In this document: positions 3,961 to 52,715 of the stretch, piece after piece | Layout: every line of letters starts with the position of its first letter | Position numbering within the stretch: position 1 is the stretch's first letter | From: Octopus vulgaris | Taxonomy: Eukaryota | Direction: 5' to 3' | DNA: 64,000 nt | NCBI GenBank assembly: GCA_951406725.2 | Contig: OX597814.1 | Location: 176,514,001-176,578,000 of the forward strand | Translations under genes and position numbers: made by a program | Notes under the pieces: model-generated | What the model was told of the DNA's origin: nothing | The model's database searches: none | Seen by the model: only the letters and a program-made list of their open reading frames with translations

Positions 3961-4049
3961 GATAAGTTTCATGTTGCAAGACAGTGTGTGAGAGAGAATC
4001 ATAATGCCATAGGAGAGAAATATGTCTGCATGGATGTTGGCTCATTTGC

Positions 4050-5080
4050 ATTTTAATGAGGCTGCAAAGAGAGAGACTTGGAGACACCACTATGAAAGGT
4101 TGCTAAATGAAGAGAATGAATGGGTAAAAGAGAGCCTGCCAAATGTCAACTCAACAGAGGGACCAGCTATCCAAGTTGACAGTACCTTGGTTGATAAAAC
4201 AATTAAGGGTATGAAGACAAGGAAAAGTCCTGGCCCATCAGGAATCACAGCAGAAATGCTTAAATTATCTGGCGGTGTAGGTTATAGTCTAGTCACCCAT
4301 ATAGTCAACCAGGTGATACATGAAGGAGTCATACCTAATGACTGGTGTAGCACCATAGTCAACTGCTACAAAGGTAAAGGTGATGCATTAGATAGGAATA
4401 ATTACAGAGGTATCAAATTGTTGGATCAGGTGATGAAAGTCATGGAGAGGGTCATAGCCCAACTAATTAGGGAGAGAATTAGTTTAGATGAGATGTAGTT
4501 TGGGTTTGTGTCAGGGAGAAACACCACCAATGCTGTATTTCTGGTAAGACAGCTACAGGAGAAATTCCTAGCCAAAGATAAACCTCTGTATTTGGCTTTC
4601 ATTGACATAGAGAAAGCCTTAGACAGGGTCCCTCAATCACTTATCTGGTCGTCAACGTGGAAACAAGGGATAGTTGAGTGGTTAGTGAGAGCTGTATAAG
4701 CCATGTACAGGGATGCTGTCAGTAAGATGAGGGTTGGCAACATATATAGTGAAGAATTCCAGGTAGGTGTAGGGGTCCACTAAGGATCAGTCCTTAGCCC
4801 CCTCTTATTCATCATAGTCATCCAGACAATAACAGAGGAATTCAAGACAGGATACCCCTGGGAGTTTCTCTGTGCTGATGACCATGCTCTAATAGCTGAG
4901 TCACTACCAGAACTAGAGATGTTTCAGGTGTGGAAGCAAGGTCTACAATCGAAGGGCCTTAGAGTCAATCTAGCAAAAACCAAAGTCTTAATAAGTCGGA
5001 AGGCAGACAAATCACAACTCCTTTCATGTAGATGGCTCTGCTCAATCTGTAGAAAAGGCATAGGTAGAAACTCCATAAAA
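4050..5080 (+). pseudogene. Degenerate RTE-clade LINE reverse transcriptase fragment
   Basis: Motifs GPSGITAEMLK, IPNDW, YKGKGD..NYRGIKLL, FIDIEKALDRVP, GVH*GSVLSPLLF, CADD; several in-frame stops. Confidence 0.9.
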
Positions 5081-5511
5081 AGTACCCTCATTTCTGCCAG
5101 TTTGCTACCTTAAATAATCTTTTCTACTCTAGGCACAAAGCCCGAAATTTTGTGGGAGGGAGCCAGTTGATTAGATTTGAACTCAAAACAAAGACAGACG
5201 AAATACCACTAAGCATTTTCCCTGGCATGCTAATGATTCTGCCAGTTCACCACCTTACAGTAAAATTACATTGACTTATGTACTGTTGTTTGTTTCTACC
5301 CGATATATTTTTGCCAGTCTCTTCTTATTTGGCTACTTACTACTTGAGTATTAATATGGTTATTATTTGGTTTAAATTGTTGCAGTTTGGCAATACAACT
5401 TTGGTAATACAAGTAGTGAGAGACTGCAGTACAGATGTCTGATGAAAGTGAGGACAGGTTTATCAATTAGATAACCTAATTTTCGATTATGTGAAACTGT
5501 ACAGAAATAGA

Positions 5512-32186: not shown

Positions 32187-32939
32187 GTATGTCTCTTATT
32201 TATTAATAGATTGAAATAAAAATCTTCATTATGATAAACTAACCCCACCAATAAATTATTGATGATTCAAGTTTAGTTAATGTCTTTGGATAACCAAAAA
32301 TTACCAGCTTTCATTAGGTGCAGGCATGGCTGTGTGGTTAAGAAGCTCACTTTGCAACCATCTGGTTTCAAGTTCAGTCCCACTGCATATCATCTTTGGC
32401 AAGTGTCTTCTATTATAACCCCAATGCAAACAATACCTTGAGTGAATTTGGTAGATGGAAACTGTCATGTATCTACGTATATATATATATCTGGGTGTCT
32501 GTGTTTGTCACCCCTCCTGCTACCATTTGACAATCAAATTTGGTCTGCTTATATGCCTGTAACTCAGTGCTTTGGCAAAAGAGACCAATAAAGTACCAGT
32601 CTTGAAAAGAAAAGAAAAATAGTACTCTGAGGTTGATTTATTCAACTAAAATCTTTCAAGGTCGTGCCTCAGCATGGGCACAGTCCAGCAACTCAAACTG
32701 ATAAAAAATAATAACTTGTGTTTCTGGCTGTAGCCATCTTAAAGAAATCTGTATCCCTTCATTTTCTTTTTTTTTTTTTCAACTAAAAACTTGTATTTTT
32801 ATGAATGACCAAGTTCCACTTTTTATTCAGATTCTTGAGAATTTTTAATATTTTTTTTACTTTCAAAATTGTAGAAATGAATGTTTAAAACAAAATTTTT
32901 TTTTTTTTCTTTTCTGTTCTTCTATTTTAGAAATTTTAA

Positions 32940-33187
32940 ATGATGGCTAACAATCTGCCTGCCGGGAAGATGTACAAGAAACCAATAAAGAAAAATGTTG
33001 GTTTACGGGCATTCTTTCCTGAAATGCCCATCAGCATGAGTAACTTGGAGAAAGCCAAAATCTGGGTAAAAAGGCATAACAACAACTATTTTATGGGATG
33101 GACTCAAGAACAGCTTCAAAGTCTTGACCCCATTGTCAGGCCACTGACCATCATTACACCAGAATTGTACAAGCGGCACATGAATAG
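32940..33187 (+). CDS. Coding exon 1 of an uncharacterised 756-aa protein with a duplicated domain
   Basis: Strong polypyrimidine acceptor ending TTTTAG at 32930; in-frame TAA immediately before ATG 32940; donor AG|GTTAGT at 33187/33188 (phase 2); peptide is homologous to part of the last exon. Confidence 0.85.
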
Positions 33188-33284
33188 GTTAGTAGTAGCC
33201 ACTGATTACTTAGGGGTAATTTCAGTCTTATTAATGATGTTTTGATTTTATAATATTTTCTACATGTATTCTTTGCATTTATGT

Positions 33285-33321
<37 letters not shown>

Positions 33322-33333
33322 TGTAGGATTCAT

Positions 33334-33382
<49 letters not shown>

Positions 33383-33598
33383 TCTTTTGTTTTGTCCTGC
33401 ATTTTAACAAGAAAAACTACAAATTGAAATTGAATGACAACTTTGGAATGTTTATTCTTTTGCTGGAATTTCAATATCGTTTTAAATTCTTTAGATTCTA
33501 ATTAAATTCGTTGACAGAAAGTTTTAGGAAAAAATACGGAATGTAAAATATAGTTGAGTATATAGCCGTTAAAAATATAATTGACTCTATCATGTTTT

Positions 33599-33900
33599 AG
33601 AACTCTTATATTAAAATATACATAAATCTTAGCATACTTCTGGTAGCAGACTTTTATGTGGTCACTTTGCCTGCAGGAAATAGCAACCAAAGTTCCTTCA
33701 TGTTCTACCATCTTAGAAAGCCTGAGACACATTATGTCAGAAAAAAAGAGAACTCTTATTTTACAATATACATAAATCTTAGTATACTTCTGGTAGCAGA
33801 CTTTTATGAGGTCACTTGGCCTGCTGGAAATAGCAACCAAAGTTCCTTCATGTTATGTTCTACCATCTTAGAAAGCCTGAGACACAATATGTCAGAAAGA
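33599..33900. repeat. ~150-bp tandem duplication
   Basis: AGAACTCTTAT...ATGTCAGAAA occurs twice, starting near 33599 and 33749. Confidence 0.8.
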
Positions 33901-35195
33901 AAACAAGGTAGTCACAGCTGGAAGATCTTGTTATATAACAAAGTTGAACCCTTAAGATCATCATCATCAACACTTAATATCCATTTTCCATGCTGGCATG
34001 TGTTGGACGGCTTGGCAGAAACTGGCAAGGCCAGGGGCCATACCAGATTCCATAGTCTGTTTTGGCTTGGTTTCTGTGGCTGGATGTTCTTCCTAATGCC
34101 AACCACTTACTAGGTGCTTTTTACAGGACACCAGCATCCGCACCAATACTTTTTACGTGACACATTGGTTTTAGGATCTCGATTCTATTTTGGTGCGTAT
34201 GTCTTCTTAAGATGTTCATTTAGAACTTAGAAGACAATTAAATTTCAATACTGTATGGTATTTATGTGGTCCAACATAATACCATTTTGAGCAACAAAGA
34301 AGCCTCTACATGGTTACACAATCTGGTAGAAATAGTAATTGAATCTCCCTCAAGTCACACCGTCATCTTAAATAAAGATGGAATATATTTAACAATGTCC
34401 TAGATACTCTTTAAAAGAGAGGAAGGTCATGATTGAAATTCCTTTGATCAAACATTTGCTGTATCAGGAATGCCCTGGGGTGAAATACCAAGCACCATTT
34501 GTGACTTGAACCAATTCCATATCACCCTCACTTACATCTGTGTACTTTTAAGGATACATTACATAAGATTGACCAAGGTACATTAAGCTCTGGAATAGAT
34601 GGAATAGTCATGACTGATAAGCCTTTGATTATAGGTTGGCCTCTTTGAAACTGCTTCATGGTTAAGGAACAACAACTACAGCAAATCTGAATTATGTTGC
34701 TTTCAAATTAGTTTATGTTTTCTTTTGAAAATAAAATACAAAAAAGACAGAAAACCAGTCCTAGCAGTCCATGCTAAGAATAAGCTTTGCTTTCAGCTTT
34801 TGCCAAATTCTATCTGTTTATTAGTAGGAAATGTTATTGAAGTTTTCTTATTAGAGGGGGAAAAAGCTATTAATATTGATTTAAAATAAATTGAAACTGG
34901 TTTTGGTATTCTATTGTAACCTTATTTTTCACTTACTAGTTCATTCTCCAAATAATTTTTAGTTTTTCGTACTGCTATATAAAAACGTACCACTGAGCTG
35001 GGTTTGAACTTGGGAGAATTTTATAGCTTTCTCAACTCAAGATTTCAGTGTGACAATCTCTGTGATGGATAGAAAAATCTGTTAAGAAAGTAAACCAATT
35101 AAAACCCACAGTACAGGACATGGAACAAAAGTTGAAAAATAAAATTAATAGTTAAAAAATTATAAATTATTTAACACTAACTTGTCTCAGGCTTA

Positions 35196-35714
35196 TGAGG
35201 GTGAGTCAAAAAGTAATGGCAACACAGGAACATGTATCATACATCAAAACGAAGCTGGTCCTCTGTAGATCACATCCCTACTTCTCAACATAGTCACTGT
35301 TTCTCTCAATAGCAATGTTCCACCTTTGAATGAGAGCATGTATTCCTTGCCCAGTAAAATTCTGTTTACTGTTCTTTGATCCACTTCTTCACTACAGTTT
35401 ACACTTCCTTGTCACTGGACTATCATCTCTTTGGCCCCATAAAAGAGGGTTTGAGAGGCAAACCTTATTCCAGTGACGCGGAAGTGAAAGCTGTAGTGAA
35501 TAAGTGGCTCAAAGAACAATCAACAGAATTTTACGGGGCAGGGATAGATGCTCTCATTCAAAGGTGGAACATTGCTATTGAGAGAAATGGTGACTGTTGA
35601 AGTAGAGATGTGATCCACAGATGATCAGCTTCATTTTGATGTATGATACATGTTCCTGTGTTGGTAATTATACCTGTCCTAAACAAAATGGCATTACTTT
35701 TTAACTCACTCTTG
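35196..35714. mobile_element. Mariner-derived non-autonomous element with long TIRs and a transposase C-terminal remnant
   Basis: TA-flanked GAGGGTGAGTCAAAAAGTAATG termini; 35410-35600 translates SLDYHLFGPIKEGLRGKPYSSDAEVK...IQRWNIAIERNGD (mariner C-terminus). Confidence 0.85.
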
Positions 35715-37351
35715 TATAATTCACTAAACATTTCAAATAATTTAGAAAAATGTATTTTTTTACATTTGCTTCCAGTTAATTTTTAAGTGTGACTTTCTTT
35801 CCCCATTTCCTTGCCCTCTTATGATCACAATTTATTACAAGAAAAAAAAGTTGATTTTTTTTTCACTAATATCTTATAGGAACAGGCATGGCTATGTGGT
35901 TAAGAAGTTGCTTCTCAACCATATGGTTTCAGATTAGGTCCCACTGCACGGCGCCTTATGCAAGTATCATCTGTAGCGCTGGGCTGACTAATGTCTTGTG
36001 AGTAAATTTGAGAGACTGAAATTGTACAAAGTTCATAGTGTGTGTGTGTGAATTTTTACATACTGTGTGATTCTCATGAAATATCAACTGAGCTACAAGC
36101 AGTGAAGTTTGTCATTTCGTTATCAAAAAATTGTCCACTTGCACTGTATGAAAAACCTGTATGGGTTAATGACAAGAAGGACACCCAGCTGTAAAACAGT
36201 GTCGCAGAAAACATATATTCATGTAACCCGAGTTAAGATGGGAAAAAAGGCATAAATGATTGAACAAATAAATTATCTCAATTTTAAAGATATTGACTAT
36301 GTTCCTAAGTGATGTAAATTATCTAGTGAAGGGTTAGATGTCTTGCAAACGACTTGCACATGCAAGTGCTACCAGTCAAAAGCTTTGTATACCGGAAGCC
36401 AGCAAGTGTATAGGGTCATCAGGAGAGAATGCACACCATTTCGGGGCCTAGCTCTCGACGGCATCAATGCGCACCGGCCCCCCTCACTGATATGAGGCCC
36501 CGCTTGCTAGATCAAATTAAGCTTAATATCCTTCTAGCCATCGCTCATCATCTCTTTTTAACCAAATCCAGTGGCTAGCCTTCTCCACTGTAGATTGGAT
36601 ATCGGTCATGGTGGTATTGACTTTACGATGAGTTAGGCCTAGCGATAACAACAGTTATCAAATAAAGACTTTGATGAGGTTGTTAAGTTGTACCATTGAA
36701 TTAATGTTATAGTGACTTAATAGCTAACTCAATGTTTATGTATTTCATGTAAGAAGTATTAAAAAGCTAATTGAAAATAATTATCTAATGAGGAGGAAAC
36801 AATTTAGTTGATGACTGATATTCTTTTCATTTTATTCAGCAAATATGGGAGATGATTTCAAATATATTTTGATCTTGTTATAACCTCCATAGCCATCACT
36901 GTACACACCAAAGTAGTGATGAAAGACTTGCTAAATAAGTAATATCTAAGCTTGTACATTTATTGGTATAGGTAAATACAGTTGTTTGCAAAATGAATAG
37001 GACACCATCTGCATGAAAAATAATAGTTAAGTTTGTGTTAGGAAATTTAATGAGTGATTAGAGCGTTAAAAACTGAATAGTACCATCTAACTAGTGAATG
37101 TTATATTGAGAACGTATATTTCAAAATACTAATGTTGGTAGTAATATTGGAAGTATGAAGACATGTAATTGCCAACATATTGTATATGTAGTGGGAAATA
37201 GGATGTTAGATTCATACTGATCAGTTTTCTTTTGGAATAATTCTTGCAACGTTTATTGAATTTTATATGGGTTTTAAAGAAGGAATCCATATCTTTTTGA
37301 TCCTACTTGATGTTAATAAAATAGTTTTTCTTTACAGTTTATATGTGTGTG

Positions 37352-37383
<32 letters not shown>

Positions 37384-39816
37384 TATATATATATGTTTAA
37401 AGATTACTTGCCTCTTACATCAGATGCTTGTAAAGATGTCTTTTGCATGAGAATGGTACAGTCTTCTGAAAATGACTCTTAAATGTCTATCCCTTTTTAT
37501 ACTTGTTTTCATTTGCGCATATTTCTTTGCTCTATCCCCAATCAATTTTTCTTTCTTGCTCTTCTGTTGCTTTTTTTTTATAATGTCTTCATGGTACATG
37601 CTGCAAAAATAATCTGACTGTTCTTTTTCTTTTCCAAATATGGTAAGTACTTGTATACCACACAGTAATCACTTGTATCCCACCTTCCCTCTGGTTCAGA
37701 AATACTGCTCTGGGGTGTTTTTGGCTGTTGGTTTCCTTTTCTTGTGCTATTGTTTTTAATGATCCTCTATAATTTATTACATCCCACCACTTGTAACAGT
37801 CTAATATATATATATTATAAATTGATAAATGTGAACTACTTGCAAAATCATTAGTAGTGATTTCAAAAGTACTGAGTAATTTCAGTTTAAATAAAATCCA
37901 CTGGAAAATAAAAACTATTTTTATTTAGAAAATCTTTTTACACCAGTTGTTTTCACTGTTGGATACTTATCTTTCCTACTACTGGTCTTATCTGTATTTT
38001 CGGAATTAGGCCATTTTAAAGTATGGCAAATTGATACAATATTTAGTTATAGGCATTGCCCATCTTTAGTTTAGTTTGCCTGATTTTTCAACAGTTGACA
38101 GATTTTCATTTTTTAACAGTTGTGAGGTTGGTAGTAGAAAAAGGTAGTGAAATAAATACGCAAAAGTTTTCAGCAATATGGAAAAGTATCCCACCCATGC
38201 TAGCAAGGAAAAATGGATGCAAAGCAACAAATAAATGTTTAATTGAATATACAGTCTATGCTTGAATCAAGGACTTAAGGTTTCTACAAAACATCATTCA
38301 GGAGTCAGGTTTTTGCAAAATTTTGCAAAAACAAATTCAGTAAAAGCACAACACAGCCACCATAAAGATAAATAATGAAAAGAAGAAAATTACAAAAACA
38401 ATAACTATTGTTCAGAATGCATTATAATCGAGAAAAAAAACTTAAGTATTCCATATAAGCTAATAATTATCAATAATAATAATTACCAAGATATCTTTCG
38501 TGTTACATAAAATCTCAAATTTTGAATATCTTCATATATATGTAACTGTAGAATTAAGTAACAATGAAAATTAAGAATGTTTTGAATATTTCTGAGAAAG
38601 GATTCAGTTTAACAGATTGCTGCATATGTTCCAAATATAGACATCTATTCTATACAAAACTTTGTATATGAATTTTTGACTGACACAATGCAACATTTTG
38701 ATTACTTTTGTGTATGTAAAATATTGTTCTGATAATATTTGGTAGATATCACATATAACCCTACTGTTATGTATGTTTAGGAAATCTTTGAAAATAATAT
38801 AGTGACCTGTCAAGAATGCAACCTAGTGTCGAGAAACTAAACACTGGAATGATTATTAAGATATGCAACCTAATACACACATACATATAAATAATGTATG
38901 CATATGTATTACATGGAGGTTATTGGAACAATACAAGACATACTTCAATATAGAAGCAAAAAAGAGTCTAATATGAAAGAACTCTCTCATTCCTGGGCTA
39001 TATCTGAACACAAAATCTGAGTATTTGCTCCATGCTTGCATGAGAGGAAGTCCATCCTCTGTAATGGTGTAGACTGCTATAAAAGCTGGGGAGTGCTACT
39101 ATCATTTCATCTACTCCAGTTATTTCTTGCTGCTTGATCTTGGTATCAGAGTATGGCCTTCTATCACATCTTGTGTGCATTTTGTTTCTTCCTCTCTAAC
39201 CTTCTTTTCTTTCTCTCTACGTCTAACATCATTTATCTTTCTGTTTTTTTCTTTCTCTCATTATCTCCTATCTGTTTTTATTTTTGTCTCTTTGTTCACC
39301 ATATTTTTTTCTTTTCTACTCCAGCCTCAGGCCGACCAAAGCCCTGTGAGTGGATTTGGTAGATGGAAAACTAAAAGAAGCCTGTTGTATATATCTAAGT
39401 GTGTGTGTCTTTGTCCTTGTCTCCCACCACTGCTTGACAACTGGTGTTGGTGTGTTTATGTCTTCATAACTTAGCGGCTCAGCAAAAGAGACTGATAGAG
39501 TAAGTACCAGGCTTAAAAAAATAAGTACTGGTGTCAATTCATTCAACTAAGACTTCTTCAAGGCAGTGCTCCAGCATGGCTGTTGTCTAATGACTGAAAC
39601 AAAAGATAAGATATATAGTGGAACTGGCTCTACAGCCCTTTATTACAGGGTGTTTTAGTTTGTACATCTGACAGTTATATGGTCTATTAAATTCACATGA
39701 TCGTTATATAAAATATCTGTGTGAGAGAGCTATACATGTATACATATGTATGTGTTCATATAATAGGTAGAAGAAATAAAGTGTTTATAGGTGTGTGAGA
39801 CATGAACATGAATGTT

Positions 39817-39865
<49 letters not shown>

Positions 39866-39868
<3 letters not shown>

Positions 39869-40021
39869 TCTAGGAGTGGTTGGCGTTAGGAAGGGTATCA
39901 AGCTGTAGAATCTCTGCCAGATCAAGATTGGAGTCTGGTGCAGCCATCTGGTTCGCCAGTCTTCAGTCAAATCGTCCAACCCATGCTAGCATGGAAAGCA
40001 GACGTTAAACGATGATGATGA
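39866..40021 (+). mobile_element. SINE family C copy after a (TG)n(TA)n tract
   Basis: Family C body and tail. Confidence 0.75.
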
Positions 40022-41621
40022 CTTACGTACACTATCAACTATGTTTAAGTACATATGACTGTGGTTAAGAAGTTTGCATTGTAACCATATAGCTTTGTGT
40101 TTTGTCTTAACTGTGGGCAAATGTCTATGATAACCTCAGACTGGCCAATGCTTTGTGAGTCAGTTTGGTTGATGGAAATTACAAAACCTGTATGTGAGTG
40201 TGTGTGGTCTGTGTTTGTATTTCTGTATGATGGGAAAGTTTGAAGGTATGTATGTAAATATGTATATTGATATATAGGTTGTAAATGTATGCAGCCTAGT
40301 GAGCATGTATGTCCAAATGATTGATATGAATAAACCAAGGATATCATTCAGCTGAAGATTGATTATCTAGTGATATCAATCCCTTGCTTGGAATAACATT
40401 AATTATTTTTAATGTTAATACCAATATTTGTATAAATTTTCACTTTATTTTATAAACATTTCCAGTACATTTATTTTTGATTAAATATATTTGATGTAAT
40501 TATTGGTTGTACAGATACATTAGTGGTTATATATAAACTGAAAAGTAGATAACACAACTTTAATAGGCAATAATTGTACAAAAAAAAAAAACCCTCATTT
40601 AAAATTTGTCTAAACTCAAATCTGAGTCCTGACTCTGCAGAAATTCAGTAATTAAATTTGTTGTGAAAAGTAATAACTCCAAAAATTATATATATTTTTA
40701 CAAGCATAAAACAATAAATAAATTTTAAAAAGATAATGAATTTTTTAATTTTTAAATTATAGGGAGGAAAATCAGTAATATATGTATGTAATAAAATAAT
40801 TACCTCATACAGGAAACCCAAGATTTCTTTTGATTAGATTGTCATGATTAACTTTACTTTTTTGAGGATGGTTATTGGTCTTATTGGAATGAACTTTTCA
40901 TATATATTTTTTATCTTTATTTATGTAGGTTGTGTTTTGTTTTTATAGAATTTTGAATAAATATGAATAGCATAAGAGTACTGGCTCTTGAAAGAAGCTA
41001 TTGGAAACTTGAAATTCCTAATTCAAGTGTAGAACCTGTATTCAAATACAAATAAAATAAGCCGTGTGATTTTGGGTTTGTTCCTGCCGTGTGGTACTGT
41101 GGCAGGTATCTTATACAATTGCCTTGTAGAAGATGCTTGGCAGGAATAAACTTAAAATAGCCTTGTGATGACCAATGCTTTATGAGTGAATTTGATGAAT
41201 GGAAGTTCTCTAAGAGTTTATCTCACTCTCTCTTTCTCTATCCCTCTCTTTCTCCCTCTTTCACTCTCTCTTTCACCCCTTTTCCAACTGAGATATTCTT
41301 GTATCTCACAAGACCTATCTCTGTAACACTATTCCTTTTAAGCTGTCATCAACTGACACAAAGCCACCTCCCTCAATACTACTGCTCCTTTCAGTTGAGG
41401 GGGGTCTTTGTGTTGCAAGATACTTGGTGACCCAGCTGGTGCTGGTACCACAAAAAAAAAAGCACCTAGTACACTCTGTAGTGGTAGGCATTATGAAGGA
41501 TGTCTAACTGTAAAAACCATGCCAAAGCAGACAATTAAGCTTGGCACAGTCATCCTGTTAAACTGTCCATCTTATGCCAGTATGGAAAACAAACGTTAAA
41601 TGATGGTTATATATATATATA

Positions 41622-41818
41622 CCGCCAAACTGGCCCGTGTGCCGGTGGCCCATAAAAGCACCCACTACACTCTCGGAGTGGTTGGTATTAGGAGAGGCAT
41701 CCAGCTGTAGAAACTCTACCAGATCAGATTGGAGCCTGGCACAGCCATCTGGTTCGCCTGTCCTCAGTCAAATCATCCAACCCATGCTAGCATGGAAAAC
41801 GGACGTTAAATGACGACG
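41622..41818 (+). mobile_element. SINE family C copy
   Basis: Family C body and tail. Confidence 0.75.
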
Positions 41819-42142
41819 TGTGTGTGTGTGTGTTATTTATATGGATGTGTAAGTGTATGTCTTTAGGTTTTTCCATTTGTTTCTTAACGTTATTTATTTG
41901 CTTAGCATAAAATAATGTCCCTGCTGGTTTTATGCTAACATGCAAAAAACATGATCATGATGATATTGTAATGAATAGAAGCACTCCACAACATTGGGAT
42001 AAGTAGAAATTTTAGGTATATTTAGGCACCTGTGTTTTTAGTCAACACACATTGAACCTAACTGTGATAAGGTACGCAGAGAAAGCAGTGGTTTACCTTT
42101 TACATTGTTGGCTGACAGCATTGCTGAGACAGCAACTTAATA

Positions 42143-42355
42143 AGGTGGTGAGCTGGCAGAAGCGTTAGCGGCATTTCGTCTGTCTTTACGTTCTGAGTTC
42201 AAATTCTGCCGAGGTCCACTTTGCCTTTCGTCCTTTTGGGGTCGATAAATTAAGTACCAGTTACGCACTGGGGTCGATGTAATCGACTTAATCCTTTTGT
42301 CTGTCCTTGTTTGTCCCCCTCTATGTTTAGCTCCTTGTGAGCAATAAAGAAATAA
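42143..42355 (+). mobile_element. SINE family A copy
   Basis: Head, core and tail. Confidence 0.75.
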
Positions 42356-43884
42356 CTAATTCTGCTGTGCCTGGGTTTCCAGAAGCAAGTGCCTAGTCCT
42401 GTGTACACTTACCACCTCTCCTCTCATGGATCCTATATTCACAGCATCCATGAAGCTATACAGACATGAAATATTGGTTAAGTCATATACAAGGGGGTGT
42501 TGAAGTTCCTGGTTTTGGGTAAAAGAAAATACAGAAGGATGAGTTAATTATGATTTTATTCAACATATTCTCCTCTCAGATTCATACACTTATTGCAGTG
42601 GTCCGTCAGTTCTAAGCCCTGTAAAAGAAGGTTGGGCCTCCAACCTGGCCTTAAAGCCAGAAACACTCTTATATATCTGCCTTACAGTCCTTCCTTAATC
42701 TTCTTTAAATGCTCATGGGTTTATTATTATTATAGTGCTCATGGTTTGGGCAGAACCAATCCCACACGATTGTCTTTTGAACTTGTAATAGTCTAGTGTC
42801 ACAATCAGGATTTGTATGGAGTTACCTTCTCCTGGATGAGTGGAAGGGCTTCATCTTACCCTGGGTCCATTGAGATGTCTGTGAGTGACCTTCAGGAAGC
42901 AATTCTGTGACATGCTTATTAATCCGTAGCTGGGACTCTGACAGGTGCTACTAGTCCAGGTTAGAGTAGACCTGGGAACAACAATGGGGTAAGAAGTGGT
43001 TCCACACACCTTAAACTCTGTAACTTCTGAACAAGGGCCCCACTACGGTTGCTGTTTAAAGTTATGTCCAGAGGAATAGTAGGTAGTTTATAGGTATTCT
43101 CTCTGTAATCAGGAATAAATAAAGATAAGTGTCTTTTACTTTAGCCATGGGCCAACCAAAGCCTTGTGAGTGGGTTTTATAGAAACTGAAAGAAGACCAG
43201 ATATATGTATACATGTACAAATGTTTGTGCTTGCATGTGTTTATATGTTCATTTACATTTACTTTTCTCTGAAAATCACTCAGCTCTTGGCAGTGATGTT
43301 CCTGTCAATTCCCCTATCAATGGTTTATCTCTTACCTTTTCACTTCTGTGGAATAAGATGTATTGTAAATGTGAAGAAGATATGAGTTAGTGACAGGTAA
43401 CACATCCAGTTATAAAAACATTACTTTGGCATGTATTCGCCTAACCCATGCTAGCATGCAAAAAATGGATGTCAAAATGAGCAAATGAATTCTGATGAGG
43501 CTTTAATTTAAATCAAAACCAGTCAGATTGATCTCTTTTCCTAACCACAGAGAAAAACCTGTCATTTAACCATGGCATTTACCTTTTCACAATGAAGCTA
43601 AATTCATATTTACTGAAAACACATGCTTGTAAATTTACATGTGTATGTGCACAGACTTCATATTTCATAAGTTAATAAGGCTCAAGTTCAAGTTTATTAC
43701 TGCAATCTTGCAAGTCAGTAAAGCTTTAGAATATGATTTTGAAATGAATTTTTGCAATAAGTGGGCTTTTATTTATTTATTTATTTTATCTGGAATTAGT
43801 TGTTTAGTGAAAAATGAATTGAATTTGATATATATAAAAATAATTTTGGCAAGACAGTGTATGCTGTATATAAATATAAACTTT

Positions 43885-44080
43885 TCTACTCTAGCCTGAA
43901 ATTTTGGGGGCAGTCGATTAGATCAACCCCCAGTATGCAATTGGTACTTAATTTATCGACCCCAAAAGGATGAAAGGTGAAGTTGACCTCGACAGAATTT
44001 GAACTCAGAATGTAAAGACAAACAAAATATTGCTAAGCATTTCACCCGGTGTGCTAGCGTTTCTACCAGTTTGCCACCTT
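43885..44080 (-). mobile_element. SINE family A variant
   Basis: Reverse complement of the family A head and core with an alternative tail, as at ~5118-5256. Confidence 0.7.
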
Positions 44081-47000
44081 AGTATATAAATATAATGCAA
44101 GATGTACCGAAACAAATAAGCTGGGCTTTTTTAAGTGACAGACAATACTTGCAGTCTTCTGTTTGGTTTCTTGCTAAATTTATAAATTTTTTGTGTTGTT
44201 GACTCTTTTAGACATTTTTCAAAATATTGGTTCTACAGTTTTAGTGCAGCATCAATTCTTTGGTATTAATTAACTAAATTCTTTAAACAAAAATTAGTGA
44301 AAACTTAAACCTGTGTTTCAAAGTCTAATTTGAAATATTTTATATCAGTAGCAATATTTAGGTTCATCACCCAGCTCTAGATTGTCTTTAACAGAGTCCA
44401 CACTATTATAAGTAATTTAAACCAAGCCTTTGGTCTAAGGTTAGCTCAATAGTTTTGATATGCTGCTTTCTATTGTAACAGCCCATGAGATGTGGTTTCT
44501 TCCTCTCTTACCAGTCTCAGAGACCTTGCAAAATGTCATGTCCTAAGCCATAAAATTAAAATGAACAAACAATCACTGTTTCATTTTCACTAACCAATTA
44601 GAGAAAGGAATTGTATGTAAGTTATAAAAGAATATCTGACTGATAACAGCATAAAAGTAAAATGTTTGATGAAAAAATATCACTATGCAAGATAGCTGAG
44701 TTAGAAGTAGACCAAGGAAAAACTTAGCATGAAGTAATTTTAGACCAGAGATGAGATGCTGCAGGTAAGAGGCCTTAGCAACTTTCTATATTGTAGGTAT
44801 ATCCATGATGATGCAAAATAACCTCTTGACTAACTTTTGTGGTTGTTAGGACAGAGACAAGTGATTTATTTGTAATTGTAGTTTTTTTATTAAATTATGA
44901 TCATCAGTGATAATTTTTTTTCTTTTGCTTTGTATTTTTGTTTGTTATATTGATATATTTTTGTGGTGATTTTTTTTCAAATGATATTATATATATATAT
45001 TTATTTTTTTTTTTGGAATTATGTTTTTTAGTTTATCAAAACATTTTCGTTCTGTCAGTTGCTGCAGTCTTAGTTTGCCCCCCCATGCAGTATTCTGAAA
45101 ACCAAGTTATGGTATGGCTAAGTTAATGCTGTGATGTATGTTAATCCATTGACCATTTCTGTCATTTCAGATGCTGTAGATGTAACCATTATGTTTTGTT
45201 TAACCCACAAGCACATAGCTATTGCAAATGGAGGTAATTGCAAAAACCTATGTAAGAGGTTATTTGCACATATCATCTGCCAATCACTGACAAATTTATT
45301 TTATTTTTATCCCCCTCTATCTAACATATTTAGAAAACAATACTTCTATGTACAGTTTTTGCGTGGAAAAAAAGCTTGGCTTTGTCAAAATAATTTAAAG
45401 TTAAATTTTTTGCCTAGTTTATCCCCAAGTTCATTTTAGGATTTGAAGAGTAAAATTCTTAAATTTAGGTATTAGATTTTTCTGAGTTTAAGAATAAGGA
45501 ATATAAATTACTCATATTATAAGGAACATAGATAATTATTTTCAAGAAGGAAGGTAGATCATTTGAAGAAGAAAAATAATCCTTGAGATAAAAACGTTTT
45601 TTCAAAAATGGTTGATTTTTGATTTTGCTCCATACGTTTATCATTGTTTATTCCTCAGATCATCCTGCTTTTTATATTTTTTTTTTTACACTTTCATTAT
45701 TAACTTTCTATTGTCAGCTTTTTTTAGTCACTAACACATGAACTCACTTTTTATCATAAAATAACAAGATAATTAGGAATTAGTAATTATTCTAAATAGA
45801 AATAAAATGTAAGGGAAAAAAATAAACAACCATTATTGTTACATTTTGTAGCAGATTTAAATTGTAAATTAGTTTTAAAATAGTTTATACATTTTTTTAT
45901 CAACCTAATTTTAAAATTCTATATAGTATGCCTGTGTAGGGTTTTACTTGATGTCCATTATTTGGCAGTCAGCTTAATTGCGAAGACAGACAACTGCACC
46001 TGGGGGCAACTAAAAATGTTCTCTTTCATCAAGTTTTTGTTGGGAGATGTGGTTATTAGTCACATTCCTGATCATTTTCTAAATATTTTCCCCCAGTATA
46101 TTACTGCTTTTCTAATAAACTCCAGAGAGATTAAATTTAACCTTGATTGAATCCATACAGCCAACTGGATGTAAAGCATAGCATATAAGACTTAAATTTC
46201 ATCGCAAACTATTATCCACCAATTCTTATTTTTCTTACACCATTGTAAGCATTTATTCTCTGTCAAAAAGAATTTTGAGAGAATTTTCTGCAGTGAAGTC
46301 TTCAAGAAGAAACTATTTTTAAACCATTGGCTTCAGTTGTTATTGCAGAACAGTCCCTATGAGGAAATATTTTGCATAACACTTGTTTTGTTAAAATAGT
46401 AGAATGGAAAAATACAATATGTTAATAGCAGGCAACATTATTGAAAGGAATTTCTTTAAAAAGTTATTATTCTCTGATTGCTACATTGAACATTTGATCA
46501 TGTCACAATCGCTTCATCTTGCTTGATTTTTTAAAAAAAATTGTGAGTTTGTTGCCAATTTGCAGCAACCAAAACAATGTTTGTTTGTTTGTGTTTTTTA
46601 AAGAAATACTCAGTTCATATATTGTTATGAACCTCTGCTGTTTGGGGGTAAATGTTAAGGTTAGCAACCACCGAAGTTGTTTCAATAATAGTAACTTCAA
46701 TTGTTAAAGCATATTTGCATGTGACTATTTGTGAAATATGCCTAAAGAATTGTTAGGTTTACTGCTTCTAATCGTTCTTTCTTAGATCTTAGCAGCCACT
46801 GAGTTTCTATAAACATCTATTGATTGCTTGCCAGTCAGTGACTTGTGCACAGGATCCACTTTAGCAGTGTCAGAAATATCCATTTTAGTGAGAGAAAGAG
46901 AGTTTGTGTGTGTCTTTGTATTGTTGGCATTAGTATCGGTAGTAAATTCATACTCTGGCATCTGATTTTAGATATGTATGGGTTTATTAACATAAAGAAG

Positions 47001-47169
47001 CCACATGAAAGGCAAATGTTATTGGTAAAAATAAATATATCAAGTTGGATTATATCTCCTGGGTTTCAGTTAATGCAATAGATTCATGACTGTCACTCAC
47101 TCTGGAACATAAAGGTTCTGAAATCAAAAGCTGTGAGAACCTGCTGATCTGCAGTTATGCTAGTTGTAT

Positions 47170-47565
47170 TTTGTAGATTCTTCTTTATATGAAGCATAGG
47201 CCATTGATGGCTTTTCTCCTGTGTTCTTAACTCTGGGCTGTATTTTATGCTTCTCTCCAAATGGATCCCTGCTTTCAGCTGTTTTTAGGGTCTCCTCTCT
47301 TCACTGAGGGAAGGCTTCCTCTCCCAGATCTTGTTAGTTATAAATTGTCAGTGATGTTTCTGTAACTTAGCCTTTTTCTAGGTAGGGGTATTGGCCCTCT
47401 GCCAACCCATTTTTATCTCTGGAAAGAGATGGTCATTGACTCTTTGGCCTCTATCTTTTGACCCATCTAGCATGGAATGCCCTACAAAGAGCTTCCACAC
47501 TGCTGCTCTGCTGGCATAGCACTCAGGGTCACTGAGGCACACAAGCCACCACATCACAACAAGGA
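47170..47565 (-). mobile_element. Probable non-autonomous RTE-derived element
   Basis: Reverse complement begins CCTTGTTGTGATGTGGTGGCTTGTGTGCCTCAGTGACCCTGAG, resembling RTE/BovB-type 5' ends (recalled similarity, not searched). Confidence 0.4.
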
Positions 47566-48291
47566 TTGGACCTTGTGGTAGATCCTTGTAGGTAACCTGG
47601 ATAAATATTTGAGAAAATACCTTAGTGTTTTATTTGTTCAGGTAGATGAAGCAAGTTTATGTCTATCAGAATCTTTATATCTGATCTAGTCACCTTGAAA
47701 AAACTTTACCAGAAGTGTGAAGATCTTGCTGACATTGTTCTTGGAAGTGTAGGAAGAATGGATAATCCTTAAAACATATATTAATTTCTTATATTATTTA
47801 AATGTTAAAGGAACTTCTAAATCAACCCTACATATGTGTGTTTGTAATGTATGTATGTACATATGCACAAACAAGTATACTATTGTTATTTAGTCCCCAG
47901 TCAGACCTGACCAAACAGTTCTGTGATCAAAAATATTCCAGCTGTGACCTTCTTGTCTTTAAAAGTATTGAAGACTACATTATCTAATGTGTTCTTTCCT
48001 TTTGAAAGGTTGTAGGGTGTGATTTAAGGGAGATTTAGTTGCTATTTCTAGCAGCTCATGTGACAATGTTGAGACTCCCTATTTAGCAGTTTACTTTGTA
48101 ATATGTATGTGTTGAGTAAGATACTTAGACGAATCCTTTTTTTATTTTCAACTAAGAATAATTCAACTGATTGAGGTTGCCTAAATCAGAGACAACTGTT
48201 CCAATTTGAAACTAAATAATTCCACTGTTTGGTGATTTTGGTCACTCAAATCACAGTGGTATATAATCTTGTCAGCATATACAGTAAATTT

Positions 48292-48475
48292 TTTAAAACT
48301 TATTTCCAAATTGTCTGAAATCTTCTCTCATCAAAGAATTCTTAAAATTTGTGCCTAAGTTGTCTGAAATCTCATCGAAGAATTTTAAAAATTTGTTTCC
48401 AAGTTGTTTGAAGTCTTCTCTCCATCAAAGAGTTCTGAAAAATTTTCTCCAAATTGTTTGAAGTCTCTCATCAAG
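48292..48475. repeat. Minisatellite, ~4 diverged units of ~45-49 bp
   Basis: Repeating AAAATTTGT..CCAAGTTGT.TGAA.TC..CTCATCAAAGAATT. Confidence 0.75.
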
Positions 48476-50563
48476 CAAAATAATTGTTGCAGGATGCAAA
48501 AACAAAATCATTTGCATTTGTTGTTTATATCTCATTTATTGTTGATGTTCCAGTATGGCCAGTGATTAAATGCTTTCTCTAGAGAGTTTAGTTTCCATGT
48601 TTTGGGCTCTCTCTCTCTCTCTCTCTTCAGTCAAGTAATTTTATTCTACTTGATTATAAAATATTATGTGGAAATGTTGTTTTAGAATTTCAAAATACAT
48701 TTTGTATTGTATATATACAAAACCTCTTATTGTACGTCATTGACTGAATTTGAACTCCTACACGTCTTTCTTAAGACTGAGTGAATGTGTGTGAGTTGTT
48801 GCAGCAGCAGAACAATGTGTGAAGAAGACCAACAAAAAAAAAAAAGAAAGAAAAAGAAAAGAAAGCTTTCAAATAACAAACAAGGATTTACTTAATCCCT
48901 AAAAAGTCATATTTAATGAAAGATATTCTTCAGAACACACATTTTTAAAGCTGGCTGCAAGAAAATATACAGTTCTTCTCATTCCTTGCGTAAACACTGC
49001 AATATTTTGGCAATGCACAAGGAATTACAGTATAATACTGAATATTTTGAATTTTTTGTTTTCCTGAACAAATTTCAGTTCATTTCTCTGTTCAATGTTG
49101 CATGGAAAGGTATGGATATTTCTTTTACTAAAAGATGTTACATGTTCACATATGACCAAACTGATTATCGTTGAAGCTATAAAACCTGTCTTATTCAAAT
49201 TACTCTTGTTTTATACATTTTTCATGTTGTCTTTCTTTCATTATGTCAGCTAATTCAAGCCTTATACATGACATTGTGACACAAAAGATTGTATTTTTTT
49301 CTTACTATTTTGAATTTTATTCCAAAACTTGTTATTTTTAAACCAAAAAAAAAAAGAAAAGTATTTATGACATATCTCAGCTTATTTGGATGTTTGCTGG
49401 GATGAAATGTAAAATCGAACACTGGAATTTTAGTTTGCAAAATAGATGAATGATAATAAATATTGCAATGATTTAGTCTGACACTCCCATCTTGGCTATC
49501 ACCAAAGATCTTCAAAAAAAAGAAGCAGTTAAAAAACATGATTCAATTTGAATTGTTTAACCATTTATTTACCCTTGTCTTATATGTGTTGGATTATAAC
49601 CCTTAGCTTATCAGTTGATTAGTCTTGAGAAAATAATAGTAGTGAATATTTAGTTTGCTGTGTGAAAAAAATAATTTCATTAAAAGTCTGTTGTTTAGTC
49701 CTAGTTTAATGCATTGTTTATACTTATAGCTTGTGATGCATTTTGTCCTAAATTACCATGAGATTTATAGATAATTCTTTACACCATAACCATCATTAGC
49801 AATATTTTAGTGTCTTCCATCTCATCCAGTATGTATTGCATCCAGTTAAATTTAGATCACTTAATCAAAGTCCATTGATTTCAAGACATTTTTTTTTTTT
49901 TAAAATCTATCTTGTTTATTTATTTGTTCTTTTTTTCACCACCAATGCGAAAAAGAATAAAAAATTGTTTGCCCATTCACATTTTCATTCTAAATGTCTA
50001 TGTTTACTAATTCTTGATATTTTTTCTTCTGAGAAGTGGGGAATTTTGTTTAATTGATCTTACATCTAGGGGTAATAATTCAAAAGATTTTACTAGGACT
50101 ATAGTTTAGAATTGGGGTTTACTTAAGATATATAAGCTCTCTGAAATTTATATACATCTACCAAACAAATGTACTTGGAAATTATTTAGATTTAAATAGT
50201 AATTCCCATTATAATCTTAATTATCATAATTTTTTTTTTAACTTTGTGAGTTAAGAATAAATATTTTAGTGATCAAAGTTTGTAGAGTTTAAGTTATTTT
50301 ATCTATATTTACTTTAAAAATAGAAATTACATATGACATTTTAATTTTAGTTTTAAAGTTAATGAAAAAGACAGTCTGTCTTTTTCATTAGTCTCTGCTC
50401 TTTACAAATTATTTTTACTTTTAATCATTTGATATTCATTAGAAAACCTTTTAAAACATTGTTTAGATATATATGGGGAATGTAAATCTTCCTCATATAA
50501 CAGTTTATATCTCTATATTTGATAAATTATGTTACCTTTTAAATAACTTTTAATCTCTTGCAG

Positions 50564-50676
50564 GAGTGAATATTGTCGAATTGTGAAGCTTAAATATTGT
50601 TTGGAATCTGATGCTGACTGGGCTAAAGAATTCCGGCGTCGTTTGGGAACTGACAGTTCAAAGGGAGGTTTCCGAA
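50564..50676 (+). CDS. Coding exon 2 of the duplicated-domain protein
   Basis: TCTCTTGCAG acceptor, A|GTAAGC donor; phases 2 and 1 match both neighbours; encodes SEYCRIVKLKYCLESDADWAKEFRRRLGTDSSKGGFR. Confidence 0.88.
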
Positions 50677-50805
50677 GTAAGCATTGCCTTTCTTTCACTC
50701 TCATTCTTTTTCTTTCCTTTTTGTTTTCTCTTTTTACATGTTCATTTGTTTTTCTTATGTTTTGTTTCCATTGATAGAATAACACAAAATATGTTTTTGT
50801 TTCAG

Positions 50806-52715
50806 GTTTGGGTGAAGCTAAACTGTATGCCACTCAGTTGTGGCGTCAGTACAGTGAGCTGTATGATGTCCATCGTGCACGCATTGGCAACAGCAATTCA
50901 AGGGCTTCACTTGAAAAGCATCATTCACTTGATGGGTCTTCTCGTGACACAAAAGCTATTCATATCAGTTCAGGCTCAGCAATCAGTAGCTCAGCTGCCT
51001 CACTTCTCCCCCTTAGTGGCAGCCCAGACTCCTTGATCCCTCCATTTAGACGTGAAGATGACAAACTACTCAGCCTCCACCTTGCTTCAATGGACGAATC
51101 AAACAACCATCACTTAAACGAGTTTCCAAGTTCATCCAGTCTGAACATCAGTCCTCTTATAAAAGTAGAACGGGAAGAAAAATTTGAATCCTCCTCAACA
51201 ACCATCAGCAATGAGACAAATTGGTCTGTTGACAATAACAAAGTAAGCTCTTCTCACAACACACCTGTTTTTCCATCTGTTGACCAGATGGAACTCAGCA
51301 TTTTAGAAAGAGTTGATGTTTTACTGCGAAGAAGACGGAAAGATTTCTTTCTCGGTTATACTGAGGACCAGTTACGAAACTTGAGCCCTTTTGAACGTCC
51401 ACTGACCACAGTTACTGAAAAAGAATACCAAGAATATCTCTTCAGCGATGAAGGACAATTAACTTCTGCTCTTGCCACAGTTTTTGATCTCACTGAACCT
51501 TGGGCATTCCGTTTTAAAAAGATGCTTCATTTAAGTCCTGAGGAAGGTGGTTTTGCAACTTGGCCCGATGTTAAACAAGAACTTTATGTGCTATTGCAAA
51601 ACCATTTAAGTGGCAATAGTAATTCTCAAGAGTCTGTAGTACCGTCAATGCTTGATGGTTCCCATGGTACAATGCCATCTTTATCTTTAGACAGTGACCT
51701 TCCGAGTACATCAGGTTTGGTTGAAAGGGCCAGTGAAAATATTGATTTTACCAATACAAGTTCTAGCATGCTGTTGGGTAAGGATTCATTAAAAGAATCA
51801 ACAATATCACTGTTTAGTTCTGGCATTTTAAATGGAAGATTAACGAGCCAGAAGAAATCCCCCGATTCTTCCGACAGAACAGTTGTATCCCAAGCATCCC
51901 CTTCTGCCCCTGAAACCACTGAAGATGCTATTACTATAGATGATGATACTAATTCTGAAGATAATTTTGCTGCTGGTAACCAATCTCAAATGAAAAGCCC
52001 ACCTGTCTCTTCTAATGGCCCCAGCATCGACAATATCTGGAGCACCAACAATAGTAGTTCTAATGATCACAGAAGGGCTGCAAACCATCTTCAACAGCAG
52101 TTTTTATCTGATTCTAGCGTTAGTATTACTTCGTCCATTGAAAGAAGTGGTCACTCTGTTACTGCTGTATCATCCAGTTTATCTGCGATGGCAACACCCA
52201 ATCGCTTTGGTTCACCACTTGGTAAAGTCAGCAATCGTATCTCTTTAGATTTAGCTTCATTCGGTCGTAACCAAGGAAACTCAGAACAACTGGAATGTTC
52301 TCCTATGGAGCCTAGGAATTCTCGTGTTGTACCCCGTTTTAGTTCACAGTCAGCAATGGCAATGGACACAGGTAGTGTAGAAGTTCCTACAGTGAAGACC
52401 AGTAATCGTAGTAACCCTTCAAGACTGGTTGTTGCTGGTTCTAATTCTCTTTACTCAAATAATAATTCTAGTAGTAAATCTCTGGTATCGAAACTTTGGT
52501 CTCTCAGAGATAAGTTAGCTGAACGCTGTCGTGACGATCCAGCTGTTAGCTGGCATGATAAATTGAGGCCGCATTTGAAACTTATCCGATCACAATTAGG
52601 TGAGACTTACACTCTCCCGAGTTCTGTGCATGAAAGTATTGCCGATCTTTTCCTTGTTACATTGCAGCTTGAGCTGCTCGACAAACAAACATCAGGATTC
52701 AGTGACATGTCTTAA
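50806..52715 (+). CDS. Terminal coding exon 3: second domain copy, Ser-rich low-complexity region, helical C-terminus
   Basis: TTTGTTTCAG acceptor at 50805 after a 129-bp intron; 1.9-kb stop-free frame in AT-rich DNA; total CDS 248+113+1910=2271 nt = 756 aa plus stop. Confidence 0.93.

Follow-up and report, generated by a model that had tools for sequence, protein, structure and literature searches.

A repeated helical domain in an uncharacterised octopus protein: members of an undescribed family and a putative nuclear regulator

The BEN-domain and GTF2I-repeat proteins of animals carry several copies of a helical domain, long disordered linkers, and corepressor and SUMO motifs, with the individual copies being functionally distinct; we take these multi-copy regulators to work much as the octopus protein described here might do. 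MADF-BESS proteins combine an N-terminal basic helical domain with a long low-complexity linker and a small C-terminal helical domain. Some animal transcription factors are known to derive from domesticated transposons (PMC10027918). Here, we report on a gene in a stretch of 64,000 nucleotides from Octopus vulgaris (assembly GCA_951406725.2, contig OX597814.1, positions 176,514,001 to 176,578,000, forward strand; referred to as the window throughout). It encodes a 756-amino acid protein with two copies of a helical domain that matched no Pfam family and a further conserved domain at its C-terminus. The protein has, in our estimate, an even chance of being a nuclear transcription regulator whose first domain copy is predicted to bind DNA.

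Joining of the segments 32940-33187, 50564-50676 and 50806-52715 yields an open 756-codon frame, and both introns (17,376 and 129 nucleotides) have GT..AG borders. The protein, P0001 in our collection, is identical to the Octopus vulgaris hypothetical protein CAI9716408.1 deposited at NCBI, and its orthologues in O. bimaculoides (LOC106883223), O. sinensis (LOC115217823), Argonauta and Sepia pharaonis are likewise uncharacterised. Transcript evidence came from assembled contigs of four runs from four studies, the RNA status of which was guessed by the tool. Contigs cross the 17,376-nucleotide skip from 33187 to 50564 in three of the four runs and the 129-nucleotide skip from 50676 to 50806 in all four. 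The splice model consequently holds independently of the argument from the repeat, and the three-exon gene that the initial annotation had proposed, together with the two junctions it had named for a check, is upheld by the open frame, the identity to CAI9716408.1 and these contigs. In two contigs, a spliced 5' sequence of about 107-110 nucleotides precedes the acceptor at 32931; four records of the RefSeq isoform X1 also imply one or more upstream untranslated exons. Inspection of CpG content gave no clear promoter for the gene. The gene is already annotated but undescribed in the literature searched: none of twelve accession or locus identifiers was mentioned, topic searches gave no description, and one of its locus identifiers was not found in three supplement files of PMC9712504, other supplements of which may list the gene. 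The main features are as follows.

32931 to 33187, plus strand: first coding exon, with the acceptor at 32931 and the ATG at 32940; amino acids 1-83, first half of copy 1 (type A in the tree below)
33188 to 50563, plus strand: long intron of the exon-skipping isoform; 17,376 nucleotides, GT-AG, phase 2
50564 to 50676, plus strand: second coding exon; amino acids 84-120 of copy 1, with the basic helix
50677 to 50805, plus strand: short intron; 129 nucleotides, GT-AG, phase 1, spliced in four of four runs
50806 to 52715, plus strand: large last exon, coding portion; contains in this order the remainder of copy 1 (to 50867), linker 1, copy 2, linker 2, the C-terminal domain and the stop
51258 to 51620, plus strand: repeat copy 2; amino acids 272-392, intronless, net acidic, grouping with middle (B) copies
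52476 to 52682, plus strand: C-terminal three-helix domain; amino acids 678-746, distantly matched by the end of compact relatives

The claim that the protein contains a duplicated domain was borne out. Two stretches of 84 amino acids align without gaps and are identical at 25 of 84 positions, and the local self-alignment score is 158; scores from 1000 shuffles averaged 37.1 and did not exceed 65. Profiles built from each copy match one another with an HH-suite probability of 99.3% over 113 columns. The extent of the repeat had, however, been underestimated: the 84-amino acid match stands, but the true repeat comprises about 120 residues (copy 1, amino acids 22-141; copy 2, amino acids 272-392), so that copy 1 is cut by both introns. 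The C-terminal domain had been overlooked, and its recognition, made from sequence comparison, is new here. We considered it as a third repeat copy and rejected this, since its HH-suite probabilities against the two copies are 0.1% and 1.4%. The repeat is marked by a conserved set of residues (F26, R45, YF50-51, RP67-68 and F106). An AlphaFold model of copy 1 alone is all helical, with seven helices, at a predicted local distance difference test score (pLDDT) of 87.7 and a predicted template modelling score of 0.79; in the full-length model, both copies reach a pLDDT of about 80-90 and the C-terminal domain about 70, while the linkers fall below 50 and appear disordered. The net charge differs between the copies, with +7 to +10 for copy 1 and 0 to -7 for copy 2 in the molluscan two-copy set.

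Our searches agree with the initial statement that the domain could not be assigned to a known family. At curated cut-offs, Pfam-A found no family over the repeat in five pieces, six full proteins and 73 relatives; in 35 compact relatives (described below), the best Pfam E-value was 0.0027 and no family occurred in more than two proteins. NCBIfam and PHROGs gave only scattered single-member matches, ESM Atlas no usable feature match, and PDB sequence searches only noise; PDB rows at an E-value of 5e-6 proved to be added up from very small matches with designed repeat proteins and were discarded. With the searches made, the domain has no family in Pfam, NCBIfam or PHROGs, and an entry in CDD, PANTHER, SMART, Repbase or AlphaFold DB is possible. 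With the copy-1 model, Foldseek returned no match at E ≤ 0.001 in PDB or BFVD, and the best VIA-align hit among 48,161 chains had a Z-score of 4.8 (root-mean-square deviation 2.9, 53 aligned residues), most rows spanning residues 68-132 only. The full-length model gave a similar picture (best Z-score 5.0). These model-based comparisons do not establish a new fold.

Orthologues from the bivalves Sinanodonta, Potamilus and Solemya define three conserved blocks. The octopus protein is 79-80% identical to the three bivalve proteins in copy 1, 31-36% in copy 2 and 59-61% in the C-terminal domain; among coleoids, copy 2 is 92-96% conserved. An identity of about 80% between octopus and bivalves places copy 1 under strong constraint. 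As far as the queries used go, the octopus genome contains one copy of the gene, which has the character of a single-copy, orthologous and conserved host gene. Three weak loci (L003, L005 and L008; genome E-values 8.2, 0.73 and 5.9) were treated as chance rather than as paralogues, and the compact relatives P0090 and P0165, used as queries against the octopus genome, retrieved only this gene or no match. Among named proteins, our word-based search found close two-copy orthologues in coleoids, two unionid mussels and Solemya only; other well-sequenced molluscs may carry a three-copy form or may have lost the gene, between which a word-based search cannot decide.

A profile built from five sequences was run against 1.84 billion representative sequences. 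At E ≤ 0.001 it returned 140 matches, of which 63 reached 1e-10 and 23 reached 1e-30; P0099 and P0140 were left out of the 140 as repeat artefacts. Because the domain is present in named bivalves and in these 140 library matches, the earlier suggestion that it is lineage-restricted does not hold in the narrow sense; as judged from these sequences, the family is wider than the cephalopods, which is new here. Long relatives contain up to three copies together with the same C-terminal domain, and P0042 has the full set. When 128 copies of at least 100 amino acids are placed in an unrooted tree, octopus copy 1 clusters with first copies (A; support 0.986) and copy 2 with middle copies (B; 0.975), whereas the last copies (C) form a group (0.972) without an octopus member. 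The third copy was either lost on the octopus line or gained elsewhere. P0058, P0060, P0071, P0096, P0109 and P0157 form a faster-evolving multi-copy set with its own tree branches; these are probably duplicated paralogues of one lineage.

The compact relatives, 35 proteins chosen by eye, consist of 191-274 amino acids with one domain copy and a short helical end. Their median pairwise identity is 24%, a cluster of Lys/Arg residues follows the domain in 30 of them, and 31 fall into one clade (support 0.997). A profile of the host C-terminal domain alone, run against 144 proteins, detected P0158 (1e-8), P0090 (2e-5), P0138 (3e-4) and P0168 (8e-3), and when profiles were compared with each other, the compact end matched this domain with a probability of 80.7% across 25 columns, while a reversed control reached 0.4%. 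On these profile matches, the end of the compact proteins is assessed as distantly related to that domain. Two of 73 proteins scanned, P0063 and P0066, carry the repeat domain fused to C2H2 zinc fingers; their copies belong to different clades and hence represent two separate fusions. The first 55 residues of P0063 form a compact-looking block without a Pfam match, presumably one that also occurs in other invertebrate zinc-finger proteins. In the single protein P0165, the repeat domain is joined to a piece in which DxxH is followed by a His/Cys finger; both features are described for Kolobok transposases (PMC9587614), to which the piece was assigned by eye. The P0165 fusion may be a gene-model chimera.

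The contrast between the copies suggests how the protein might work. At positions 83, 88 and 91, Lys or Arg occurs in 100, 90 and 100% of ten type-A copies and in 77, 77 and 97% of the 35 compact proteins; the corresponding values are 100, 0 and 0% for B copies, 12, 4 and 75% for C copies, and 0, 0 and 0% for nine molluscan second copies. DNA binding by copy 1, predicted from this pattern, has in our view an even chance of being correct. Two short motifs of the linkers bear on the question as well.

51159 to 51170, plus strand: SUMO-consensus site IKVE, predicted from sequence; amino acids 239-242, in the disordered linker 1
51930 to 51947, plus strand: weak motif ITIDDD, resembling a SUMO-interacting motif; amino acids 496-501, in seven of nine sequences, with a shuffle probability of 0.08-0.15 each and a pattern chosen after looking

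The pattern [IV]KxE, fixed on the molluscan set before the library profile search, occurs in linker 1 of all nine sequences, 24-37 amino acids upstream of copy 2. Nine of nine two-copy proteins have it (1.7 expected), as do 16 of another 20 long relatives (3.8 expected), and it is not enriched in compact proteins (5 of 35; 7.8 expected). A CtBP-type motif is present in nine of the 20 long relatives, with 0.72 expected; VLDLS, one form of it, has been shown to bind CtBP in ZBTB18 (PMC9684030). Taken together, zinc-finger fusions, SUMO and CtBP-type motifs, and the basic helix point to a nuclear regulator. For the nuclear or nucleic-acid-binding module that the initial annotation had guessed at, the nuclear half thereby gains indirect support through the fusions and motifs, and the nucleic-acid-binding half stays a prediction from sequence. 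In the mechanism that we envisage, copy 1 would touch DNA through the helix of amino acids 83-97 (R83, R88 and K91) and nearby basic residues, and copy 2, having lost these residues, would act as a scaffold or partner surface. The long Ser-rich linkers with their SUMO site, joined by the CtBP-type motif in three-copy relatives, would suggest repression, and the C-terminal domain might serve as a protein-contact module.

The 17.4-kilobase intron harbours a cassette exon that the initial annotation did not contain and that is new here. It comes in two forms.

45171 to 45233, plus strand: cassette exon, 63-nucleotide form, between AG and GT; 21 Cys/His-rich residues, in frame between amino acids 83 and 84
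45171 to 45251, plus strand: cassette exon, 81-nucleotide form, with an in-frame TAA at 45235-45237; joint 45251-50564 in one of four runs

Contigs in two of the four runs join the first exon to the cassette exon; a joint leaving from 45233 itself is absent among the contig rows listed. The 21-residue insert is present in the 777-amino acid RefSeq isoform X1 and in the cuttlefish-cluster protein P0023, and it falls at the start of the basic helix of copy 1. The 81-nucleotide form yields a product of 104 amino acids, with its premature stop 127 nucleotides upstream of the last junction. This exceeds the 50 nucleotides that define a poison exon, a rule of alternative splicing coupled to nonsense-mediated decay. 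Its junction with 50564 also creates a new in-frame ATG four codons past the stop, and the frame of 674 amino acids that follows agrees at 666 and 672 of its 674 positions with the X3 isoforms given by RefSeq for two other octopus species; the use of the second donor at 45251 by RefSeq X3 is inferred from this match. Since reinitiation after a frame of 104 codons is inefficient, decay is the likelier fate of the 81-nucleotide form. The cassette exon would accordingly tune the output of the gene: skipping would give the full protein, the 63-nucleotide form would insert 21 residues where the basic helix begins, and the 81-nucleotide form would probably be a substrate of decay or encode a protein without half of copy 1. 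An inverted pair of 23 nucleotides with 78% complementarity (44816-44838 and 45243-45265) overlaps the second donor of the cassette and may be due to chance in AT-rich DNA. The long intron also contains very deep contig pile-ups (window positions 38800-40140, 41470-42800 and 43470-44140), which are high-copy repeats, probably of a type resembling short interspersed nuclear elements.

Such a stop-containing cassette could alternatively serve as a poison exon for autoregulation, as is known from splicing factors, with the repeat binding RNA; loops of this kind are common in RNA-binding proteins (10.1101/464404). The basic character of copy 1 and the stop introduced by the alternative donor fit this explanation. 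When octopus is compared with the cuttlefish cluster, six of the 21 positions of the cassette peptide are altered, each by a single-base change, as opposed to three of 130 in copy 1 (Fisher p 2e-4), as if the exon were retained for a role at the RNA level. All six Cys/His residues of the peptide are kept, however (p 0.09), which could mean a function at the protein level, and SUMO motifs, CtBP-type motifs and zinc-finger fusions suggest chromatin. Poison exons also occur outside RNA-binding proteins. RNA binding by the repeat is, in our judgement, distinctly improbable.

Several observations weigh against a DNA-binding repressor with a splicing switch. The CtBP-type motif is found in none of the nine two-copy molluscan proteins, the octopus protein included, and its pattern was picked after VLDLS had been seen in these sequences. 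The shuffle tests count related sequences as independent, so that the enrichment ratios for both SUMO and CtBP-type motifs overstate significance. The 81-nucleotide isoform is supported by one contig in one of four runs together with the RefSeq X3 proteins, in which use of this donor is presumed. A basic surface would suit RNA, acidic proteins or an import signal equally well. Moreover, a domain that is fused to a C2H2 array often turns out to be an effector module rather than a DNA reader, and the type-A copy that is fused to zinc fingers lies in a group with a net charge of -9 to +6. In a somewhat unlikely alternative, the repeat would mediate protein interactions or act as an effector, comparable to KRAB, SCAN, BTB or ZAD, and the octopus protein would be nuclear but work as a cofactor or scaffold without reading DNA. 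In the two separate C2H2 fusions, the zinc fingers can themselves provide DNA binding, the 92-96% conservation of copy 2 in coleoids persists despite its missing basic residues, and SUMO and CtBP-type motifs fit cofactors just as well. What speaks against a pure interaction module is the retention of basic residues on one helix by compact proteins and type-A copies across a median identity of about 24%, as well as the fact that in most members of the family no other domain is a candidate for DNA binding. We continue to prefer a nuclear regulator with a predicted DNA-contacting copy 1.

The initial annotation had contrasted an interrupted copy 1 with an uninterrupted copy 2 and had hinted at RNA-mediated duplication or a later gain of introns. 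The contrast itself is confirmed, as copy 2 is intronless, but the hint is weakened by introns that are shared with relatives. Among 136 new matches, 17 end or diverge right past the first intron site and six start there, seven start at the second site, and two read through the first site as if spliced. These boundaries look like exons read from genomic DNA, and both introns would thus be common to relatives with the three-copy layout. Marked at the same places in many relatives, they are no recent gain, and the intron asymmetry between the copies is judged to be old. The relatives also carry their later copies and the C-terminal domain in one open frame, as the octopus gene does. Reverse transcription of a spliced mRNA and its insertion into the same gene would explain why both introns of copy 1 are missing from copy 2. 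This course of events is nevertheless fairly improbable: the seven frames that run from the second site show the later copies and C-terminal domain uninterrupted in relatives too, compact relatives are whole frames so that an intronless ancestor suffices, and intron loss at the 3' side would leave an identical pattern. With introns this old, RNA-mediated duplication is unnecessary, and the simplest account would be an intronless ancestor, tandem duplication at the DNA level and an early gain of introns in copy A.

Where this ancestor came from is a separate matter. A compact one-copy gene (domain, basic stretch and C-terminal domain), perhaps borne by a mobile element, might have become fixed in an animal genome and multiplied in tandem, with the first copy then acquiring two introns. 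The size, divergence and layout of the compact proteins are as expected of accessory genes of mobile elements. Against this stands the outcome of our scans of viral, metagenome, prokaryote and phage sequences, which gave no locus or mobile-element context for any compact protein, and it is for this reason that we leave a mobile origin, suggested by sequence features, at about even chances. The search for transposon or viral homologues that the initial annotation had advised retrieved no viral, phage or prokaryotic locus; one relative, P0165, is joined to a Kolobok-like piece. Equally balanced is an ordinary host gene family whose compact members are fast-evolving paralogues. It would be in keeping with the lack of any such locus for the domain and with the single-copy state of the gene in the octopus genome under the queries used. 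It accounts less readily for 35 proteins of 191-274 amino acids with a median identity of 24%, 31 of them in one clade (0.997), for the P0165 fusion, a single case that may be a chimera, and for one candidate from a viral collection that encodes a relative of P0090, although no locus was returned for it. The boldest version of our proposal would join all elements: an undescribed DNA-binding fold, spread as an accessory protein of 200-270 amino acids by a eukaryotic mobile element, would have given rise, through one domestication, to a conserved animal repressor with several copies, would have been taken up two further times by C2H2 zinc-finger genes, and would be subject in coleoids to a three-way splicing switch at the recognition helix. 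As a whole, we regard it as unlikely.

The surroundings of the gene contain further sequences of note. Two long low-complexity frames (L018:1672-2682 and L018:3920-5869, plus strand) end about 4 kilobases upstream of the start of the window; they contain 14 [TI]QT motifs, six of which cluster at the C-terminus of the second frame, and have no Pfam or PDB match. They are probably an upstream neighbour gene on the same strand, and we take them to resemble the dynein-light-chain-binding tail of ATMIN/ASCIZ. About 85 kilobases past the end of the window, a frame of 285 amino acids (L027:5133-5987, minus strand) has no Pfam match; its start presumably resembles the N-terminus of the QRICH2/C16orf96 family. 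Reverse transcriptase fragments of the long interspersed nuclear element type occur at window positions 4013-5110 (plus strand) and in L009 and L021-L024, a GIY-YIG fragment in L015 and a helix-turn-helix-like fragment in L013. An Rfam scan of the window gave no match.

New families of animal DNA-binding domains are rare, and regulators restricted to invertebrate lineages are poorly catalogued. The function of the present domain is directly testable, since it is small, confidently modelled and offers natural contrasts in the form of a basic copy 1, an acidic copy 2 and a splice insert at the key helix. Should the compact relatives sit in mobile elements, they would provide a new case of transposon domestication and would give a name to an accessory protein family.

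A likeness to such a family exists in KolX of Kolobok, a small accessory protein of a DNA transposon that was later taken up by host genes (PMC9587614); P0165, for its part, is joined to a Kolobok-like piece. KolX, however, adopts the Cys-rich zinc-binding ballast fold of P2X7, whereas the octopus domain is all helical in its model, and none of the columns conserved in at least 70% of the 128 copies is Cys or His, so that the zinc ligands of the KolX/P2X7 ballast have no counterpart. From the BEN-domain and GTF2I-repeat proteins, the octopus repeat differs by the lack of a Pfam BEN or GTF2I match and by another set of conserved motifs; from the MADF-BESS proteins, it differs by the lack of a MADF or BESS match in Pfam and by an N-terminal domain that is larger and repeated. 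As read from its sequences, the octopus family would unite a host regulator, a pool of compact, fast-evolving relatives and capture by zinc-finger proteins. It is a real and undescribed domain family within a familiar kind of protein.

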